A program made the translations under genes and the position numbers. A stretch of DNA of 64,000 nt from Candidatus Saccharimonadota bacterium (GTDB taxonomy: Bacteria > Patescibacteriota > Saccharimonadia > Saccharimonadales > JAXHNE01). Shown here piece by piece: positions 14,332-61,393 of this stretch (position 1 is its first letter; every line of letters begins with the position of its first letter). Under the pieces are notes generated by a model. That model was not told where the DNA came from and did no database searches. It saw only the letters and a program-made list of their open reading frames with translations. The stretch lies in the NCBI GenBank assembly GCA_034520885.1, contig JAXHNE010000002.1, positions 4,787 to 68,786 of the forward strand, in the 5' to 3' direction.

Positions 14332-14520
14332 TTATTGCTCGATCTTCTTTATCTTGTTCTCGGCCGCCTTGAGCTTGGCTTCCAGCTGCTTAATCAATTC
14401 GGCGCCGCGTTCGTACTTTTTAAAAGCTTCGTCGATATCGATATCTTCCGACTCCAGCTCCGCAAACACCTCGTCCAGTTCTTCGCGTAGTTGCTGATAA
14501 GTTTTATCTGTCATGACCAT
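14332..14520 (-). CDS. xseB: exodeoxyribonuclease VII small subunit
   Basis: 62-aa helical protein; ...LREELDEVFAELESEDIDIDEAFKKYERGAELIKQL is the typical XseB pattern. Confidence 0.85.
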   Translation of the reverse strand: MVMTDKTYQQLREELDEVFAELESEDIDIDEAFKKYERGAELIKQLEAKLKAAENKIKKIEQ

Positions 14521-14935
14521 TAGTTTATAGGTTTTAGTGGTTAGATGCTAGAGATTAGGGGTTAGAGGTTAGTAGGTGGAAGGCGGTAAGCGACTTCGTC
14601 GCAATAGACGATAGATGAGAATTAATAGGTGATAGATGAGGGGTGATGGGTCGTATAGTTGGTAGGTGGCAGTTCTATAGTTCTGAGTAGTGAGTGGTGA
14701 GCTTCAGATAATACTAGAATTAATATCTAGTATTAATTCTAGTATTATTGAAACTTACCAGGCACGAACTGGAAGATAGCAGTTGGCAAGCGGGAAGCTT
14801 TTAGACCCGGAACCGCCGCCACCTCGTTTATCACCTATTAATTCTCATCTATCGTCCTATTGCCTACCGAAGTCGCCTACCTCTTATCTATCACCTATCG
14901 ACTATTATCTATTAACTCTCACCTATGCGGCTTTG
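14521..14935. mobile_element. foldback (MITE/IVS-like) element with heptamer-word arms, a long inverted repeat and a 42-bp AT palindrome
   Basis: The left half is C-poor and the right half is its G-poor complement. 14590-14634 is the inverted repeat of 14829-14876. The near-perfect palindrome is at 14708-14749. There is no ORF, and the element separates xseB from xseA. Confidence 0.7.
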
Positions 14936-17211: not shown

Positions 17212-18513
17212 ATGAAGTCACTGGCAATTTTAGGACGGCAACCGGCAATTGGCCTTGCGGAGCTGGAGTCGCTGTATGGCGCCGAAGCCGTACGACCCGT
17301 CGGCGAAAACGCCGTTACCGTTAACATCGCCCCCGATCAAATTGAGTTCAGGCGGCTGGGGGGCACGGTAAAGCTCGCCAAATTATTGACAGTTTTAGAT
17401 TTTACGAACTGGGATAAAATTGAAGATTTTCTGGCCGAGGAACTCCCCAAGCACACCTGTTGCATTACGGAAGGCAAACTGACGCTGGGGCTGAGCGCCT
17501 ACGGGTTCAAAATGAGTCCCAAAAAATTAAACGCCACTGCCCTGTCGCTGAAAAAGACCATCAAAGCCACCGACCGGCCGGTAAGAATTGTACCCAATAA
17601 GTCACTGGAGCTTTCCAGTGCACAGGTACTGCATAACAAATTATTTACCTCGCACAATTGGGAGCTCATTTTGCTGCGTGACGGCAACGAAACCTACCTG
17701 GCACAAACTACCAACGTGCAAGATATCGACGCTTACGCCGCCCGCGACCAAGCCCGGCCGGCCCGGGACGCAAAGGTCGGCATGCTCCCACCGAAATTAG
17801 CCCAAACGATAATTAATTTGGCTGTAGGCCAAATTAAAAAGATTGAAGATCGAGGACAGGAGAACGAAGAAAAAAACCCTCAATCCTCAATCCCCCATCC
17901 TCTATCAGTTTTTGATCCGTTTTGCGGAACGGGCGTGATACTACAAGAAGCGCTACTAATGGGATATCAAGTGACTGGAACGGATCTCGATGCACGTATG
18001 GTCGAATACGCCCGGCGCAACATGGACTGGCTCCAGCAAAAATGGAAGGTGGAAGGTGGAAGATGGAAGGTGGCAGGTGGCAAATGGAAGGTGGAAAATG
18101 GCGATGCAACGGATTACTCCTGGCCTGCGCTCTCAGCTTCCGGCTCTCGGCTCTCGGCTACCATCGCTTGCGAAACGTACTTGGGACGACCGTTTTCTTC
18201 CGCGCCGGATCACGCTACGCTGCAAAAAGTCATGCGTGACGTGGACACCATCCACGAAAAGTTTTTAAAAAACGTGGCCTCGCAGACGGAGTCGGGTTTT
18301 CGAATGTGCCTCGCCGTGCCGGCATGGGCACGCCACAGACAACAGACAACAGACAACAGACAACAGACTTTTAGGCATTTACCGGTGCTTGAAAAATTGA
18401 ACGAACTGGGGTATACTCGATTAAGTTTTGCTCACGCAAGAAACGAGGAGTTGATCTATCACCGAGAAGGTCAAATCGTCGGCCGTGAGCTCGTCGTTCT
18501 AAAAAGAACGTAA
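17212..18513 (+). CDS. RNA (guanine-N2-type, Trm11/UPF0020-like) methyltransferase carrying three in-frame low-complexity inserts
   Basis: N-terminal THUMP-like region and SAM motif I VFDPFCGTGVILQEALLMG. The inserts are at 17841-17906, 18038-18165 and 18335-18368. Confidence 0.7.
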   Translation: MKSLAILGRQPAIGLAELESLYGAEAVRPVGENAVTVNIAPDQIEFRRLGGTVKLAKLLTVLDFTNWDKIEDFLAEELPKHTCCITEGKLTLGLSAYGFKMSPKKLNATALSLKKTIKATDRPVRIVPNKSLELSSAQVLHNKLFTSHNWELILLRDGNETYLAQTTNVQDIDAYAARDQARPARDAKVGMLPPKLAQTIINLAVGQIKKIEDRGQENEEKNPQSSIPHPLSVFDPFCGTGVILQEALLMGYQVTGTDLDARMVEYARRNMDWLQQKWKVEGGRWKVAGGKWKVENGDATDYSWPALSASGSRLSATIACETYLGRPFSSAPDHATLQKVMRDVDTIHEKFLKNVASQTESGFRMCLAVPAWARHRQQTTDNRQQTFRHLPVLEKLNELGYTRLSFAHARNEELIYHREGQIVGRELVVLKRT

Positions 18514-51542: not shown

Positions 51543-52268
51543 TTAAGTTCCGAAACGTCTCTTTCTCGTACCGTACCAGTCTAGCGCATCCTGGAAATCT
51601 TGTAACGTAAAATCCGGCCATAGTTTTTGCGCGAAATACAGTTCGCTATACGCCGCGCGTAAAAGCATGAACCCGCTGGTGCGTTGTTCCCCGGAGGTGC
51701 GAATCACTAAATCCACCGGTGGAATCATGTCGCCTTCATACAAAAGCGAGTGCAAAACGTCCTTGCTCATGTCCTCCGGAGCGATTCTCTTTTCCAAGGC
51801 TTTTTTGTAAACGTCAATCAACTCGTCTTCCCCGCCGTAGTTAAAACACAGCGCCAACGTGCCTTTGGTATTATCTTTGGTTTTTTCTTCCGTTCGGGCA
51901 ATGGCCCGGGCCACGTTTTTGGGGATGTCGGTTTTACGCCCCAAAATTACGATTTTGATTCCCGCTTTATGAAAAGTGTCCAGGTAGTTTTCCACCGCTT
52001 TGGTGACCAACTTCATTAAATACCCGACTTCTTCTTCGGTGCGTGACCAGTTTTCGCTGGAAAACACGAACGCCGAAAGGTACTTTACGCCGCGATCAAA
52101 CGCCCCGAGCGCAATCTCCTTAAAAACTTCCGCGCCTTCCCGGTGCCCTTCCATTGTCGGCAAGCCCTTGGCTTTCGCCCACCGCCGATTACCGTCTAGA
52201 ATTATTCCAACGTGAGTGGGCACGGATTGGGGATTGAGGATTGGGGATTGAGGAGATTCAGTTGGCAT
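51543..52268 (-). CDS. uppS: isoprenyl transferase (undecaprenyl diphosphate synthase)
   Basis: HVGIILDGNRRWAKAKG and RTSGEQRTSGFMLL. The start is either ATG 52268 or GTG 52223; the 15 codons between them are encoded by heptamer-word repeat. Confidence 0.9.
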   Translation of the reverse strand: MPTESPQSPILNPQSVPTHVGIILDGNRRWAKAKGLPTMEGHREGAEVFKEIALGAFDRGVKYLSAFVFSSENWSRTEEEVGYLMKLVTKAVENYLDTFHKAGIKIVILGRKTDIPKNVARAIARTEEKTKDNTKGTLALCFNYGGEDELIDVYKKALEKRIAPEDMSKDVLHSLLYEGDMIPPVDLVIRTSGEQRTSGFMLLRAAYSELYFAQKLWPDFTLQDFQDALDWYGTRKRRFGT

Positions 52269-52626
52269 TTTTACTCCGTAAAGAACCGTTGAGTGCATGA
52301 AGCATACGGGATATTATCGCACATTCTTTCAGTATTTCATCGGCCGGTAGTCGGTATACTTTTTGTGCAGTGATCACCTGTGTTTCGAGTTCGGCCAGCG
52401 AACCAAGAGCAATATCATTAAATCGGATCGTGTCTTTGTTCCCGAACCTTTTTTGACCTTCAGCGATATTTGACGCTACCGAGACTGCCGCCCTTTTCAT
52501 CTGATCGGCAAGAGCAAATTGTTCCGTCTTTGGTAGCTGTGTAATGAGTTCATAGTTTGTCACCGCGAGCTCGACCGCTCGCTGCCACACTTCCAGCTTT
52601 TGATATTCATGAGCACCCATACTCAA
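52258..52626 (-). CDS. four-helix-bundle protein (23S rRNA intervening-sequence protein / Avd-like family)
   Basis: YQKLEVWQRAVELAV...QMKRAAVSVASNIAEGQKRFGNKD...LGSLAELETQ is the family signature. The gene is flanked by inverted heptamer-word repeats. Confidence 0.85.
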   Translation of the reverse strand: MSMGAHEYQKLEVWQRAVELAVTNYELITQLPKTEQFALADQMKRAAVSVASNIAEGQKRFGNKDTIRFNDIALGSLAELETQVITAQKVYRLPADEILKECAIISRMLHALNGSLRSKNAN

Positions 52627-52673
52627 CCTTCCTCAATCTTCAGTCTTCCATCCCCTATCCGAAATAATGACGT

Positions 52674-53237
52674 CTAAACGGTCATTATTTCTGACTCTTT
52701 AACCTTGGCCGTCTCTTCGATTTCTTTTTTGACCTCGTTCATGGCTTGATCAACTTGGTCGCTTAAGCGCTTGGCGTCATCTTCGCTGACGTCGCCGTCT
52801 TTTTTGGCTTTGTTGATAGTGTCCATGGCGTCATGACGCGCGTTACGCAAGCTGATCATGGCATCTTCGGTTTTACCGCCCACGATTTTTACGTATTCGC
52901 GGCGGCGTTCCTCGGTCAGCGGCGGCACCGGAATACGCACTACTTTGCCGTCATCCATGGGGTTCATACCCAGGCCTTGGTCTTCGCGGATGGCTTTGCT
53001 GATAGCTTCCAGGTTGTTGGGGTCGTACGGCGTGATTTGCAAAAGCTGTGGTTCGGGCGCACTTACGCCACCGACCTGAATCAGCGGCATGGGCTGCCCG
53101 TAAGCTTCCACCGTAATGTTGTCCAGCATACTGGGATGCGCTCGCCCCGTACGCACCTTTTTGAGCTCTTCCATGAAGTGCTCCTGCGCCTGCTTAAATC
53201 CTTTTTTCGCGTCGTTAACCACTTGTTCCGGCGTCAT
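52674..53237 (-). CDS. frr: ribosome recycling factor
   Basis: 187 aa; the ...MLDNITVEAYGQPMPLIQVGGVSAPEPQLLQITPYD... pattern is typical of Frr. Confidence 0.95.
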   Translation of the reverse strand: MTPEQVVNDAKKGFKQAQEHFMEELKKVRTGRAHPSMLDNITVEAYGQPMPLIQVGGVSAPEPQLLQITPYDPNNLEAISKAIREDQGLGMNPMDDGKVVRIPVPPLTEERRREYVKIVGGKTEDAMISLRNARHDAMDTINKAKKDGDVSEDDAKRLSDQVDQAMNEVKKEIEETAKVKESEIMTV

Positions 53238-53280: not shown

Positions 53281-54100
53281 GTTTGGACGGTAGAGGCGAG
53301 GAGTTGGTAGGTAGTAGATAGGAGATCGGGGATTGAGGATTGAGGATTGAGGAAAGAGTTCTGGGTTCATAGTTCATGGATAGGGTTTAGGGGCTAGGAG
53401 TTGGAAGATGGAAGTTGGAATTTGGTAGATAGAAGATGGTAGTTGGGAGTTAGTATTTCGTAGACAGTTGTCAGTTGTCCGTCTTCAGTAGTTGCGTTGT
53501 TCCAGGCTCTGGCTGAACTGATTGGACGATACGGGCAAAACCAGCAAACAAGCCTCAAGCTTGTTTTTTATGTAGTTACAACTGCCCTCGGCAGTTGTTC
53601 ACTTGGGCTCCAGGCTTCGAAAGCCTCCCCGGTAGTAGAACCAGTTCACTACGGGGCACGCCTGAGGAGCGAGTGTCAAAAGCACAATTTCTGCCGAGGA
53701 CTTGTTTGAGGGGTTGCCGGCTGAAGTATTTTGGCATACCCCGAGTTGTCCGAGCATTGTGCTTTTTGATAATGAGATCATAAAGAGGTTTTCGCGCCTG
53801 TGGCCTTTTTGGGGCACTTTTTGGCTACGCAAAAAGTGTCTGGGGGTGAAGCTGACCAGTCAGCTTCAATAATGACAGAACAAGATAGTGGGTCGGGAAA
53901 GCAAAAGCGAAGCTTTGCGCCGAAAAAACATACTTTGGGGCACTTTTTGGCCATGCAAAAAGTGCCTGACGGGAAGCTGACCAGACAGCTTCATATAATT
54001 CGTTACTGCCTACGATATTGATCGTATAGTTACAGTTGTCTAGCCCCTGTTGCAGAGCAATAATACTAGAATTAATACTAGTATTAATTCTAGTATTATT
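53281..54100. mobile_element. one-armed member of the foldback family: heptamer-word arm, roughly 590-bp structured non-coding core, perfect 42-bp AT palindrome
   Basis: Word arm at 53281-53470, hairpin modules at 53497-53995, palindrome at 54059-54100. The only ORFs here are short and inconsistent. Confidence 0.7.
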
Positions 54101-56803: not shown

Positions 56804-56925
56804 CGCGGTCTTGAATATTCCTTAACAGAGGTGTATACTTGCCCGAGTTACAAAAAACGTACGCTGACTGCAGCCAGGCTCACTGCTAACCAGCGCCAAT
56901 CATTAACGAGCTAGGATTTTGTTTT

Positions 56926-57276
56926 ATGAAAAAGGATATTCATCCCCAGAACTACCGCCCCGTGGTGTTTCAGGACTTAAACAACGACTGGGCAATTTTG
57001 ACCCGCTCCACCGCCGCGAGCGAGGAAACCATTAAGTGGGAGGACGGCAACGAATACCCGCTGGTAAAAGTACACATCTCCAGCAGTTCGCACCCCTTCT
57101 TCACCGGCCAGGAAAAACTGGTCGACATTGAAGGCCGAGTTGATAAGTTCAAGGCACGCCAAGATGCCGCCAAGTCCAAAGCCGACGCCATGAAAAAAGC
57201 CGCCGGCAAACAGCGCAAAAAACAACCCAAAGCCGACGAAACCCAGAAGATGGGTACGCTCAAGCGCAATAAGTAG
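56926..57276 (+). CDS. rpmE: 50S ribosomal protein L31 (type B, no Cys motif) with Lys-rich C-terminal extension
   Basis: [17 protein letters not shown]...[20 protein letters not shown]. Confidence 0.9.
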
Positions 57277-57312
57277 TTGACAGTAATCAGTTGACAGTAG
57301 ACAGTTGTTGAT

Positions 57313-57651
57313 ATGAGTTCGTACCGTGACCTAAAAGTCTGGAAAGATTCATTTGAGCTAACAAAATTAGTTTATAAAGCTACTGTCAAGTTACCTTCAA
57401 ATGAAAAGTTCGGTCTCGCTTCACAAATACAGCGTTGCGCAGTCTCGATTCCGTCAAATATTGCAGAAGGCCAACAACGAAAAGGTGCAAACGAATTTAA
57501 ACAGTTTCTTGGGATAGCCCGCGGTTCTGCGGCCGAACTTTCAACGCAACTTCTGCTTGCCCAGGACATCTATTCTATCGAACTGGAAATACTTGTAGAA
57601 AAAACTGAAGAAATTCAAAAAATGCTCTATAGCTTGCAGCAAAAACTGTAA
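57313..57651 (+). CDS. four-helix-bundle protein (23S rRNA intervening-sequence protein / Avd-like family)
   Basis: YRDLKVWKDSFELTKLVY...QIQRCAVSIPSNIAEGQQRKGANEF...GSAAELSTQ. The gene is flanked by GTTGACAGT / CTGTAACCT word repeats. Confidence 0.85.
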   Translation: MSSYRDLKVWKDSFELTKLVYKATVKLPSNEKFGLASQIQRCAVSIPSNIAEGQQRKGANEFKQFLGIARGSAAELSTQLLLAQDIYSIELEILVEKTEEIQKMLYSLQQKL

Positions 57652-57702
57652 ACTGTAACCTGTAACCTGTAAACTAACCATTGTTACCTGTAAACTAGCC
57701 AT

Positions 57703-58753
57703 ATGGATAAAAAGGAACAAGACCTACGCGACGAGCTCGCCGACATTATGAAACAGCTGGAAGATCCGGCTATTTTCAGCACGCCCGAGTATCCCAAAAT
57801 GCCGCCAAAAAAAGATAGAAGACATACTCGCGCTTTACGATGAACTGGCAAAGAGCAAAGAGCAAAGAGCAAAGAGCAAAGAGCTTCTGGACTCTGACGA
57901 TGAAGAATTGGCCGAACTCGCCAAAAGCGAGATAGAAGATCTGGATTTGAAAATTGAAACCCTCGAACTTAAACTAACGGAGGCTTTGACTCCAAAGGAT
58001 CCCAACGACGAAAAAGATGCCATTATAGAAATTCGCGCCGCGGCCGGTGGCGATGAAGCCGCCCTGTTCGCCGGCGAGCTATACCGCATGTACGCCCGTT
58101 GGTGCGAAACGCACGGCTACAAAATAGAACTTATCAACGAAAGTCCCGCGGAAGTCGGCGGGTTCAAAGAAATCAGCTTTTTGGTGCGCGGCGAAGACAC
58201 CTATAAATTCTTTAAGTTCGAAGGCGGCGTACACCGCGTTCAGCGCGTGCCGGAAACCGAAAGCCAAGGCCGCGTGCACACCAGCACCGTGACCGTGGCG
58301 GTCATGCCCGAAGCCGAAGAAACCGACATTGAAATCGACCAAAACGACCTTCGCGTAGATGTCTACCGAGCCGGCGGCCACGGCGGGCAATCCGTAAATA
58401 CTACGGACTCCGCCGTACGCATCACCCACGTGCCAACGGGGGTCGTTGTTACCAACCAGGACGAAAAATCGCAAATCAAAAACAAGCTCAAAGCCATGAA
58501 CGTATTACGTTCCCGCCTGCTCCAGCACAAAATTGACGAAGAAAACGCCAAGCTATCAGCTGAACGCAAAAAGCTGGTCGGCAGCGGCGACCGCAGCGAG
58601 AAAATCCGCACCTACAACTTCCCGCAGGACCGCATTACCGATCACCGTATTGGCTACTCCCGCAGCAACATCCCCGGAGCTTTGGACGGCCAAATAGACG
58701 ACCTCATAGAAGAACTCCACAAAGCCGAACACGAACTAATGAGTAACGAGTAA
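57703..58753 (+). CDS. prfA: peptide chain release factor 1, reading frame broken by one extra base at an A7 run (57807-57813)
   Basis: Frame 1 (57703-57813) encodes MDKKEQDLRDELADIMKQLEDPAIFSTPEYPKMPPKK. Frame 2 continues IEDILALYDEL...PKDPND...GGHGGQSVNTTDSAVRITH... to 58753. Frame 1 stops at 57841. Confidence 0.85.
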
Positions 58754-59637: not shown

Positions 59638-60513
59638 ATGATTACCATTTCTAGGTGGATGGCTAAAAAAACTAAAGCGCTAGAGAGCGCCGGGATTTCC
59701 ACCGCTCGACTGGATTGTTTGGTGCTTTTAGAGGACGCGACCGGTAAAGATCGTTCATGGTTGCTGGCGCATCCGGAGCACGAGTTAGAAAGTTCAAAAG
59801 TTAAAAAGCTGAAAGAGCAAGTTCAGCGGCGGGCTAAGCATGAGCCGCTGGCCTATATTCGTGGGCGGAGTGCTTTTTATGGCCGGGAGTTTTTGGTGAA
59901 CGAACATACTTTGCAGCCCCGGCCGGAAACGGAAACGATGATCGACCACTTAAAATCACTGTACAAGGTTGAACCTTGTACAGAAGCTAAAAGCTCTGAG
60001 CGAAAAGCTCTGAGCATAGTAGATGTAGGGACTGGATCTGGTTGTATTGGGATTACCGCCAAGCTGGAGCTGCCGGATGCGGAAGTGTATGCCACGGACA
60101 TTTCCGAAGAATGCTTAAAAATAGCCCGAAAAAACGCCCGAAAACTAAAAGCCAATGTGGAGTTCCACAAAGCTAATCTCCTCCTCTCCCAAAAAAATAA
60201 TTCTCACTTTTTGAACGATCGTTCAAAAAGTGAGAATATTGTTTTGCTGGCTAATTTACCTTATGTTCCGGAAGGTTTCACTATAAACCAAGCCGCGATG
60301 TTCGAGCCGGACGTTGCCATATTCGGCGGTAAGGACGGATTGGATTACTACCGCGAGTTATTCGCCCAGATTGAAACGCTAAAAACTAAACCACATTTCA
60401 TTTTTACCGAAAGCCTACCAACGCAGCACAAAGACCTGACTGCAATCGCAGAAAAACACGGGTTTCGGCTTCATGAATGCCAGGATTTTATTCAAGTATT
60501 TATTAGGCGTTAG
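59638..60513 (+). CDS. prmC: release-factor glutamine methyltransferase PrmC/HemK
   Basis: EPLAYIRGRSAFYGREF, VDVGTGSGCIGI, and NLPYV in place of NPPY. ATG at 59638. The stop TAG (60511-60513) lies within the terminal motif of the downstream foldback element. Confidence 0.85.
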   Translation: MITISRWMAKKTKALESAGISTARLDCLVLLEDATGKDRSWLLAHPEHELESSKVKKLKEQVQRRAKHEPLAYIRGRSAFYGREFLVNEHTLQPRPETETMIDHLKSLYKVEPCTEAKSSERKALSIVDVGTGSGCIGITAKLELPDAEVYATDISEECLKIARKNARKLKANVEFHKANLLLSQKNNSHFLNDRSKSENIVLLANLPYVPEGFTINQAAMFEPDVAIFGGKDGLDYYRELFAQIETLKTKPHFIFTESLPTQHKDLTAIAEKHGFRLHECQDFIQVFIRR

Positions 60514-61393
60514 ATGCTAGACGTTAGAGGGTAGAGGGTAGAAGTTGGAAGTTGGAATTTGGAAGGTGGAAGATGGTAGGCGACTTCTTCGCAAAAGGTG
60601 AGAGTTAATAGATAAGGGTTAATAGATGATAGATGAAGGGTGGTAGATGGAAGATGGAAGATAGAAGATGGAAGATGGGGAAAATAATAAGTAAAACATA
60701 AATAGTAAGTTTCCGGGCTCTGCCTGAAACGATTGGACGGCGCCTCGGGTAAAAACCGACAAACAAGCTTCAAGCTTGTTTTTTATGTAGTTACAACTGC
60801 TCCGGAGCAGTTGTTCACTTGGCCTCCAGGCTCTGGAACAACCTGGACGGACGTTGTGGGAATCAGGCGCCCTTGGGTACGAGGACTGTCTGAGCAGAAA
60901 TGGTGCCTGGCGGCACCATTTCTGTGAGTTTCACAGTAAGCCTGATTGTGACAACGGCCGTAGCTGTTGTTTCAGCCGCCTGTCGGCTTTTGTTGCAATC
61001 TTTTGCCGACTCAAAAGATTGCTGACGGGGAGCTGGTCAGTCAGCTTCGCTATTGGCGGAACAAGATAGTGGGTCGGGAAAGCAAAAGCGAAGCTTTGCG
61101 CCGAAAAAACATACTTTGGGGCACTTTTTGGCCATGCAAAAAGTGCCTGGTGGTGAAGCTGACCAGACAGCTTCTATTAGTAGTTACCTACTACTTTGAT
61201 TGTATAGTTATGGCCGTATCGCCCTTGTTAAAACGTAATAATACTAGTATTAACTCTAGTATTAATACTAGTATTATTTTTACTAACTATGAGGTGCTAT
61301 CTTCCATATCCTAAATTCCATCTTCCAAGCACTATCTTCTAGCCCCTGTCTTCAATCTTCAATCCCCAATCTTCATTCCGTAACAACTATGAA
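60509..61393. mobile_element. complete foldback-family element: two inverted heptamer-word arms, structured core, 42-bp AT palindrome
   Basis: Left arm 60509-60700 (C-poor), core 60712-61176, palindrome 61237-61278, right arm 61285-61393 (G-poor, the reverse complement of arm-type sequence also seen at 53300-53440). It fills the whole prmC-htrA convergent spacer. Confidence 0.75.

Follow-up and report, generated by a model that had tools for sequence, protein, structure and literature searches.

We analyzed a 64-kb stretch of contig JAXHNE010000002.1 (termed the window in the following) from a genome of the Saccharimonadales (candidate phyla radiation, CPR/TM7), the ribosome recycling factor Frr of which is at most 75% identical to the Frr of Saccharimonadales metagenome-assembled genomes. 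The window harbors two small genes, here called 4HB1 and 4HB2, that encode four-helix-bundle proteins and reside in the frr–uppS gap and the rpmE–prfA gap, respectively. Each gene is enclosed by tandem 7-nt repeats, and we refer to the gene together with these repeat arms as a cassette. A first-pass annotation had described the two genes as paralogues, and searches with hidden Markov models (HMMs) confirmed that both belong to the PF05635/TIGR02436 family (23S rRNA intervening sequence protein, S23p). With PF05635, the E-values were 3e-31 for 4HB1 and 1e-35 for 4HB2 (108 and 122 bits at a cut-off of 33.8), and with TIGR02436, the scores of 105 and 116 bits were both above the cut-off of 24. 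The two proteins share about 40% identity and contain the family motif S-x-x-S-N-I-A-E-G, in which the residues S45, S48, N49, A51, E52, and G53 do not vary among 36 homologues. The 4HB1 open reading frame (ORF) 52258-52626 on the minus strand opens with a TTG at 52626, but the ATG at 52620 is the likelier start; the NCBI record P0121 (120 aa) corresponds to this ATG-start form, whereas the TTG-start form has no exact-sequence record.

The AlphaFold2 model of 4HB2 consists of four helices with a predicted local distance difference test (pLDDT) score of 96.9 and superposes on 2GSC and 2RLD with template modeling (TM) scores of 0.92 and 0.83. On Avd of a Bordetella phage (4DWL), the TM score was 0.77 at a root-mean-square deviation of 2.2 Å and 12% sequence identity, and we are confident that the modeled fold of 4HB2 is an Avd-like four-helix bundle. 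The structure model covers 4HB2; 4HB1 matches 2GSC by sequence (E=1e-16). A kinship to Avd, the accessory protein of diversity-generating retroelements (DGRs), had been suggested before and agrees with this superposition, and the scores with the Avd models were weak: 4HB1 and 4HB2 reached 27 and 18 bits with NF033474 (cut-off 80) and 20 and 18 bits with PF22296 (cut-off 40). As noted already in the first-pass annotation, the window shows no sign of a reverse transcriptase (RT); no YxDD-bearing ORF of at least 180 aa was found. With Avd models below cut-off and no RT, we rejected a DGR at these loci.

With an HMM of the family that was derived from 86 sequences and applied with all filters off to the six-frame translation of the window, no third or degraded four-helix-bundle gene was detected, and the remaining heptamer shells of the window carry no four-helix-bundle remnant. 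Searches with Rfam (gathering and E-value thresholds) revealed neither an rRNA in the window nor a known RNA near the cassettes, and the window contains no tRNAs. Both cassettes sit between protein-coding genes and not in helix 9, 25, or 45 of a 23S rRNA. The coordinates are compiled in Table 1.

Table 1. Genes, repeat arms, and further heptamer arrays discussed in the text (window coordinates; strand of the mRNA-sense reading).
Feature	Position	Strand	Remarks
uppS	51543..52268	-	downstream neighbor of cassette 1
Cassette 1, 3' arm	52224..52254	-	repeated CCTCAATCCCCAATCC on mRNA; period 7, 4.4 copies (Tandem Repeats Finder)
4HB1	52258..52620	-	PF05635/TIGR02436 four-helix-bundle gene; 120 aa from ATG 52620
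Cassette 1, 5' arm	52627..52660	-	degenerate G-rich heptamers in mRNA sense: GGATAGG GGATGGA AGACTGA AGATTGA GGAAGG
frr	52674..53237	-	ribosome recycling factor; upstream neighbor of cassette 1
Extra array with the cassette 1 word	53316..53353	-	upstream of frr; GGATTGA x3.4 on the plus strand
rpmE	56926..57276	+	L31; upstream neighbor of cassette 2
Cassette 2, 5' arm	57275..57309	+	ACAG-core heptamers: GTTGACA GTAATCA GTTGACA GTAGACA GTTG; begins at rpmE stop codon
4HB2	57313..57651	+	PF05635/TIGR02436 four-helix-bundle gene; 112 aa
Cassette 2, 3' arm	57643..57702	+	CTGT-core heptamers: AAACTGT AAACTGT AACCTGT AACCTGT AAACTAA ...; period 7/21 (Tandem Repeats Finder)
prfA	57703..58753	+	RF1; downstream neighbor of cassette 2
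Arrays in a methyltransferase-like ORF	17841-17906, 18039-18101, 18129-18159, 18335-18368	+	first is a G-rich/C-rich pair with the cassette 1 word

That flanks of opposite polarity surround each gene had been noticed in the first reading of the window, and Tandem Repeats Finder (TRF) called period-7 arrays at three of the four flanks, the fourth being the degenerate G-rich 5' arm of cassette 1. The Shine-Dalgarno sequence from which 4HB1 would be translated lies within this arm. On the other side of the gene, the 3' arm, which matches to 100% when read with a period of 14, falls into the first part of the uppS coding sequence, where it encodes an N-terminal extension with the sequence SPQSPILNPQS. 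This extension is confined to UppS of cassette-bearing orthologous loci, whereas UppS from empty sites aligns from residue 11-17 onward. The uppS ORF opens with an ATG (52268-52266) that precedes the stop codon of 4HB1 by 6-8 nt, and a GGAG Shine-Dalgarno sequence for uppS is found within the 3' end of 4HB1. The resulting 11-nt overlap of the reading frames (52258-52268) suggests that 4HB1 and uppS are translationally coupled. In the predicted minimum free energy (MFE) and centroid folds, the two arms of cassette 1 are paired. Their duplex energy of -36.7 kcal/mol (z=-3.0) was equaled by only one of 500 dinucleotide shuffles, and among 82 3' arms tested, the cassette's own 3' arm was the top partner of its 5' arm. 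The arms of cassette 1 are therefore significantly complementary.

In cassette 2, TRF delimited the 5' arm to 57275-57307 with a period of 7 and 4.7 copies, and the 3' arm starts within the last three codons of 4HB2 and ends directly before the start codon of prfA at 57703. In this genome, the arms of cassette 2 have only the ACAG/CTGT core in common, which occurs in opposite polarity, and they are paired in the MFE fold. A promoter-like site is present at 56811-56839 upstream of rpmE, and no predicted terminator was found between either of the two cassettes and its neighbors, which is a signal of cotranscription with the adjacent genes. As an aside, prfA of the window is frame-shifted near 57801 (57793-57830), whereas the prfA of an independent assembly (L001) has four more bases in this region (ATCGCCCGCCGCC against ATGCCGCC) and is in frame. 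The frameshift is probably an assembly or strain artefact; a biological frameshift was rejected because the independent assembly of the same sequence reads through in frame.

About 27 Saccharimonadales loci were retrieved via Frr, and up to 20 kb of each was inspected. These loci retain the synteny prmC-prfA-rpmE / rpsB-tsf-frr-uppS-rseP, and in none of them was a four-helix-bundle protein encoded within the inspected region. In the closest relatives, both sites are empty: the frr–uppS spacers comprise 18-92 nt and often contain a -10-like GCTATAAT, and most of the rpmE–prfA spacers contain a terminator hairpin. At one rpmE–prfA site (L010), we found an ORF-less hairpin with heptamer arms. Orthologues of both genes do exist at exactly the same sites of other genomes. 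Those of 4HB2, which are 68-73% identical, occur between rpmE and prfA in four lineages (L042, L043, L044-47, and L048-49), and those of 4HB1, which are 59-67% identical, occur between frr and uppS in three lineages (L130, L131, and L132-134). L130, L131, and L132 even share the overlap of the 4HB1 stop and the uppS start as well as the translated 3' arm. On a tree of host genes, the presence of the cassettes is patchy.

Every orthologue bears heptamer arms, with calculated stem energies from -15 to -39 kcal/mol. At the frr site, the arms belong to the word family GATTGAR/YTCAATC (GATTGAR in L130-L132), and at the rpmE site, they follow the pattern ACAGnnn/nnnCTGT (L042, L043, L044, L048, L050, and L051). 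The helices use different variable positions, as illustrated by GTGAACAG/CTGTTCAC in L043, GGTTACAG/CTGTAACC in L042, and GTAGACAG/CTGTCTAC in L050, and these positions change jointly on both arms, so that pairing is preserved. The cassette architecture, its conservation at the same sites with pairing-preserving changes of the arms, and its recurrence in the family (see below) are thus established. The four-helix-bundle ORFs are intact, and their identities between orthologues (59-73%) are on par with those of the flanking housekeeping proteins.

This pattern fits old insertions that were inherited vertically and repeatedly lost, and it does not agree with recent mobility. The earlier idea of a selfish cassette that colonizes operons is not supported for these two copies, in view of their same-site orthologues in at least 3-4 lineages, host-like divergence, and intact ORFs. 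Two possible outcomes that had been named beforehand as contradicting a cassette did not materialize: the orthologues have not lost their flanking repeats but retain complementary, jointly changing heptamer arms, and the genes are not ordinary operon members throughout the phylum, given their absence from the Frr-retrieved loci and their patchy occurrence on the host tree.

The association of such genes with heptamer arms is not restricted to the Saccharimonadales. A single search indicated more than 3800 members of PF05635/TIGR02436 at E below 1e-10, and a metagenome scan yielded 80 loci from diverse bacteria with proteins that are mostly 47-56% identical; the following statistics refer to 82-86 distinct genes. 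In the flanks of the family genes, the autocorrelation at lag 7 was 0.46 compared to 0.26 at other lags, and control genes of the same loci reached only 0.27. TRF called a period-7 array upstream of 68 of 86 genes and downstream of 49 of 82 genes, the latter being an underestimate because in a group of genes located upstream of hisS, the 3' arm belongs to the coding sequence and prolongs the four-helix-bundle protein at its C-terminus. Altogether, 155 of the 170 arrays that were called in these flanks have a period of 7 or 14. The median distance between the end of the upstream array and the start codon is 19 nt, that between the stop codon and the downstream array is 2 nt, and the median copy numbers of the upstream and downstream arrays are 4.3 and 3.9, respectively, with an interquartile range of about 3.3-4.9. 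Of the 40 loci in which both arrays were called, 26 have a downstream word that reverse-complements the upstream one when a single mismatch is tolerated, whereas the direct orientation fits at only one locus. The best arm duplex has a median length of 26 bp, and arms of the same locus pair better than foreign arms (-26.1 versus -19.5 kcal/mol, p=1.4e-9). An AGT core is present in 53 of 67 words, and the orientation of the words with respect to the gene is constant.

The neighbors of the family genes are housekeeping genes that are nearly always co-directional; within about 250 nt, an ORF on the same strand precedes the gene in 74 of 78 loci and follows it in 66 of 76 loci. No transposase, integrase, or RT was among the 25 commonest Pfam families of either set of flanking ORFs (136 ORFs). 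Cultured cyanobacteria show the same build in nrdB/nrdA and cas10/cmr3 spacers, the latter for instance in Picosynechococcus PCC 7003, and viral contigs also carry heptamer-armed four-helix-bundle cassettes.

These family data bear on the simplest alternative, namely that the genes are ordinary operon members and that the flanking repeats are an unlinked by-product of a genome-wide slippage of heptamers. It is true that both genes are syntenic in several lineages and that heptamer arrays are frequent in the window and also in relatives without four-helix-bundle genes, including arrays within prmC. However, the association is seen in unrelated bacteria, the control genes lack a period-7 signal, the arms are reverse-complementary within a locus and not between loci, and the Frr-retrieved Saccharimonadales loci carry neither gene. 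The autocorrelation, the comparison of own and foreign arms, and the reverse-complementary words largely refute the slippage explanation, which we therefore regard as very improbable.

In one subgroup (L075 1-3501, L073, L071, L063, L094, L115 1414-5340, L141 1-3480, and L144 397-3480), the whole cassette is located inside a very long ORF that is read in another frame and encodes a restriction-modification methyltransferase of the Eco57I/MmeI type. Frame +2, in which the family genes have a mean of five stop codons, is free of stops in eight of the 86 genes, which suggests dual coding or a selection for read-through; 7-nt arrays at both ends of a cassette could act as frame switches.

With moderate confidence, we read each of the two loci as an intervening sequence (IVS)-type stem-loop cassette that resides in an mRNA operon and whose paired heptamer arms are processed by RNase III. 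The PF05635 gene would be carried in the loop of a stem, the arms of which are the tandem 7-nt repeats of opposite polarity, and the host transcripts would be the polycistronic mRNAs frr-4HB1-uppS and rpmE-4HB2-prfA. In these transcripts, the arms may pair as a duplex of about 20-30 bp that would be cut by RNase III, as judged from the analogy to Coxiella. Such a cut could separate the flanking cistrons, free the four-helix-bundle mRNA, or otherwise tune the expression of the neighbors. The cassettes probably arrived long ago and were then inherited vertically and lost repeatedly, and an Avd-like, probably pentameric protein is presumably made from them. Our leading guess is that this protein binds its own repeat arms.

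Several observations weigh against this RNA-stem reading. The first concerns cassette 2, whose duplex of -18.6 kcal/mol is not better than that of shuffled sequences (114 of 500 were as good) and whose own 3' arm ranks only 25th of 82 as a partner of the 5' arm, as 24 foreign 3' arms pair better. The complementarity of the flanks that the first-pass annotation had expected upon folding was thus borne out for cassette 1 but not for cassette 2 of this genome. The orthologous arms of cassette 2 pair strongly, unlike those of the window, and the weak stem is a peculiarity of this genome. Second, the 5' arm of cassette 1 pairs equally well with the extra array upstream of frr (-38.0 kcal/mol), in which case frr instead of 4HB1 would be enclosed, and the MFE fold of the 1166-nt frr-4HB1 RNA picks this pairing. 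Two mutually exclusive stems, around 4HB1 or around frr, could therefore form with this arm. As the extra array is absent at the orthologous loci L130-132, the pairing around the four-helix-bundle gene represents the ancestral state. Third, a cut in the stem of cassette 1 would fall into the uppS reading frame and decapitate the uppS mRNA, because the 3' arm lies downstream of the uppS start codon and in frame with it.

Further points concern the nature of the arms in general. The arm duplexes are not more stable on the sense strand than on the antisense strand, and the transition mismatches within the arms are mostly of the type that would form G-U pairs in the antisense RNA (62 versus 33, p=0.004), which counts against our reading because selection for a stem in the sense RNA predicts the opposite. 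An enrichment of sense-strand G-U pairs as a signature of an RNA stem was consequently dismissed, since the energies are unbiased and the mismatch classes are biased in the opposite direction. The need for a double-stranded RNA alone explains neither the 7-nt period nor the AGT core, and it also does not account for the consistent 5' position of the G-rich arm. About 24 heptamer arrays are present in the window, and a number of them, in part located within coding sequences, are not accompanied by a four-helix-bundle gene. The RNase III gene rnc was not seen in the window, which is uninformative for 64 kb. For these reasons, an explanation based on protein binding and another one at the DNA level stay alive.

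It is conceivable, although we consider it unlikely, that the arrays are chiefly protein-binding sites, and that an Avd-like, probably pentameric protein binds its own arrays as RNA or single-stranded DNA with about one subunit per 7-nt unit and thereby regulates itself, its neighbors, and any other site with the same word. This would be compatible with the stem. The narrow copy number of the arrays points in this direction, as do the AGT(G) core that is common to the words in fixed polarity, the fold that resembles a component of the DGR ribonucleoprotein (Avd in 8UB7), and the homologues 2GSC and 2RLD with five chains per entry each, although the pentamer is inferred from these chain counts. 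The word is also retained in orthologues whose Frr is just 49-64% identical, but such a retention can stem from descent alone. In addition, the 4HB1 word GATTGRGG occurs with 14 tandem matches in the window compared to 0.34 expected, and it is found at three further places of the window that have no four-helix-bundle gene. On the other hand, a 57%-identical paralogue of 4HB1, which is encoded between a response regulator gene and folD (L135-L137, 3446-3900), uses the different word CTTAGAG/GCTCTAA, and no simple code from protein to word is visible; this comparison argues against such a specificity code. The CTTAGAG/GCTCTAA word also occurs in gene-less arrays of the window at 14534-14577 and 60503-60535.

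The second explanation, which we regard as quite improbable, holds that the arms act as DNA, namely as the hairpins or terminal inverted repeats of an element that is, or once was, mobile. Hairpin formation or slippage would then drive insertion and precise loss, the four-helix-bundle protein would be an accessory, and the dispersed ORF-less arrays could be derivatives, by analogy to RAYT and REP elements. The patchy presence and absence at identical sites agree with this view, and so do the ORF-less heptamer-armed hairpin at the rpmE–prfA site of L010 and the dispersion of arrays with the same word in the window. Moreover, cassettes occupy very many unrelated intergenic sites and even lie within long ORFs in different bacteria, and the absence of a sense-strand bias in pairing energy and the mismatches that do not fit a sense-RNA stem would be expected. 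The copy number of the arms also varies between close relatives, as L067 and L070, with genes that are each about 51% identical to 4HB2, have the same upstream arm but 3' arms of more than ten versus four units, and as the strains of Coxiella differ as well. However, the flanking ORFs comprise no transposase, integrase, or RT among their commonest families, near-identical copies at different sites were not observed, paralogues of the same genome or contig differ in word and have low identity, and the divergence of the four-helix-bundle proteins tracks that of the host genes. Target-site duplications could not be defined.

The window is generally rich in heptamer arrays, which amount to 13.4 bp/kb compared to 0-10.6 bp/kb in relatives. 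An intact methyltransferase-like ORF (17212-18513, plus strand) contains four of them, all of which are translated in frame, and prfA carries an array of five GCAAAGA units at 57848-57884 that is translated as AKSKEQRAKSKE. Arrays of varied words are also found in prmC of several Saccharimonadales among the relatives L002-L029 (for example, L016 333-359, L017 1959-1980, L018 1906-1935, and L028 5892-5914), and because of this recurrence in relatives, arrays within coding sequences are a trait of the lineage and not of this genome alone.

We also noticed a pair of non-coding elements on the plus strand (53470-54060 and 60690-61240) that are mosaic, rich in hairpins, and about 550 nt long each; they are 81% identical overall, share a near-identical block of about 130 nt, and matched no Rfam family. 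The shell around each of them combines G-rich heptamer arrays with TAATACTAGTAT 12-mers and with heptamers that are rich in C. The central module of the 53470-54060 element is also present in the relative L004, where it lies in the rpmE–prfA spacer and thus at the site of cassette 2. A long imperfect hairpin at 14520-14930 has the same heptamer shell but no core; its arms (14607-14641 and 14822-14856) are 94% complementary, and it looks like an empty carrier.

Returning to the IVS-type cassette, a more general view is possible but doubtful at this stage: the PF05635 genes of different phyla may be the cargo of one conserved heptamer-armed stem-loop cassette whose Avd-like oligomeric protein recognizes its own arrays, and the dispersed hairpins without an ORF, namely the short tandemly repeated repetitive (STRR) sequences of cyanobacteria and the solo arrays of the window, may derive from such cassettes. 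If this were true, it would bring together the orphan TIGR02436 family, the 23S IVSs, and the heptanucleotide repeats of bacteria in a cassette type that settles in rRNA, between the genes of operons, and even within long ORFs. In the literature that we searched, PF05635/TIGR02436 has no characterized function, and studies have dealt only with its few copies in 23S rRNA. An RNase III-type cassette in ordinary operons would imply a widespread and so far unrecognized shaping of mRNA processing and cistron coupling. The cassette would also offer a concrete origin or partner for the bacterial heptanucleotide repeats and an experimental handle on the role of the IVS-encoded proteins.

Among the known systems, Avd (bAvd; 4DWL, 8UB7) shares the four-helix-bundle fold and a weak HMM similarity with the proteins of the window, which differ in that they score below the Avd cut-offs and in that neither an RT nor template and variable repeats were found in the window or among the neighbors. 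REP-associated tyrosine transposases (RAYTs) and the REPINs that belong to them, with REP denoting repetitive extragenic palindromic sequences, resemble the cassettes insofar as a gene is framed by a short repeat in inverted orientation, further copies of which are scattered over the genome. In our case, however, the protein belongs to PF05635 and is not an IS200/IS605-like Y1 transposase, the repeats are tandem heptamers and not REP hairpins, and we found no evidence of mobilization.

A closer likeness exists to heptanucleotide repeats of other bacteria. In filamentous cyanobacteria, STRR hairpins of 7-base repeats occur in operon spacers that contain no gene, such as that of hupS-hupL (PMC2670836), and in Beggiatoa, TAACTGA heptamer repeats abut start codons (PMC4679880). 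Similar to these, the arrays of the window consist of tandem 7-nt units that are located in operon spacers, often next to start codons, and are capable of forming hairpins; they occur in several intergenic copies above chance. Plasmid matches to 4HB2 stem mostly from Nostoc, Calothrix, and Anabaena. The STRR and Beggiatoa repeats have been described without a four-helix-bundle cargo (PMC2670836, PMC4679880), whereas the repeats analyzed here form inverted pairs around a PF05635 gene. In a limited literature search, which is no proof of novelty, only a study on Coxiella (PMC4990558) was found to tie heptamers to the PF05635 family; beyond it, neither a link of this family to HEPN, STRR, or heptamer sequences nor a description of the family-wide heptamer-arm pattern was found.

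This leads to the system that comes closest, the IVS in helix 45 of the 23S rRNA of Coxiella burnetii. There, three to four tandem GACAGAT units, the number of which varies between strains, precede the S23p ORF, and a terminal stem of 28 bp is cut by RNase III at the first heptamer (PMC4990558). A 23S IVS-like topology had been proposed for the cassettes in the first reading of the window, and the comparison with Coxiella bears out this proposal. The differences are nevertheless clear. The host is a protein-coding operon mRNA here and a 23S rRNA in Coxiella and Leptospira, and the Coxiella ORF is decaying and probably not expressed, while the ORFs of the window are intact, conserved like their essential neighbors, and, in the case of 4HB1, apparently coupled to uppS. 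In cassette 1, moreover, the 3' arm forms a translated part of UppS, and cleavage has been demonstrated in Coxiella, whereas it is a prediction for the cassettes of the window. In their build, the systems agree: terminal inverted repeats enclose the ORF, clearly in cassette 1 and, in the case of cassette 2, weakly in this genome but strongly in the orthologues, and tandem heptamers lie upstream of the ORF. Like the IVS of Coxiella, the cassettes combine a PF05635 ORF in the loop of a stem, upstream tandem heptamers, and a stem length of about 26-28 bp (PMC4990558).

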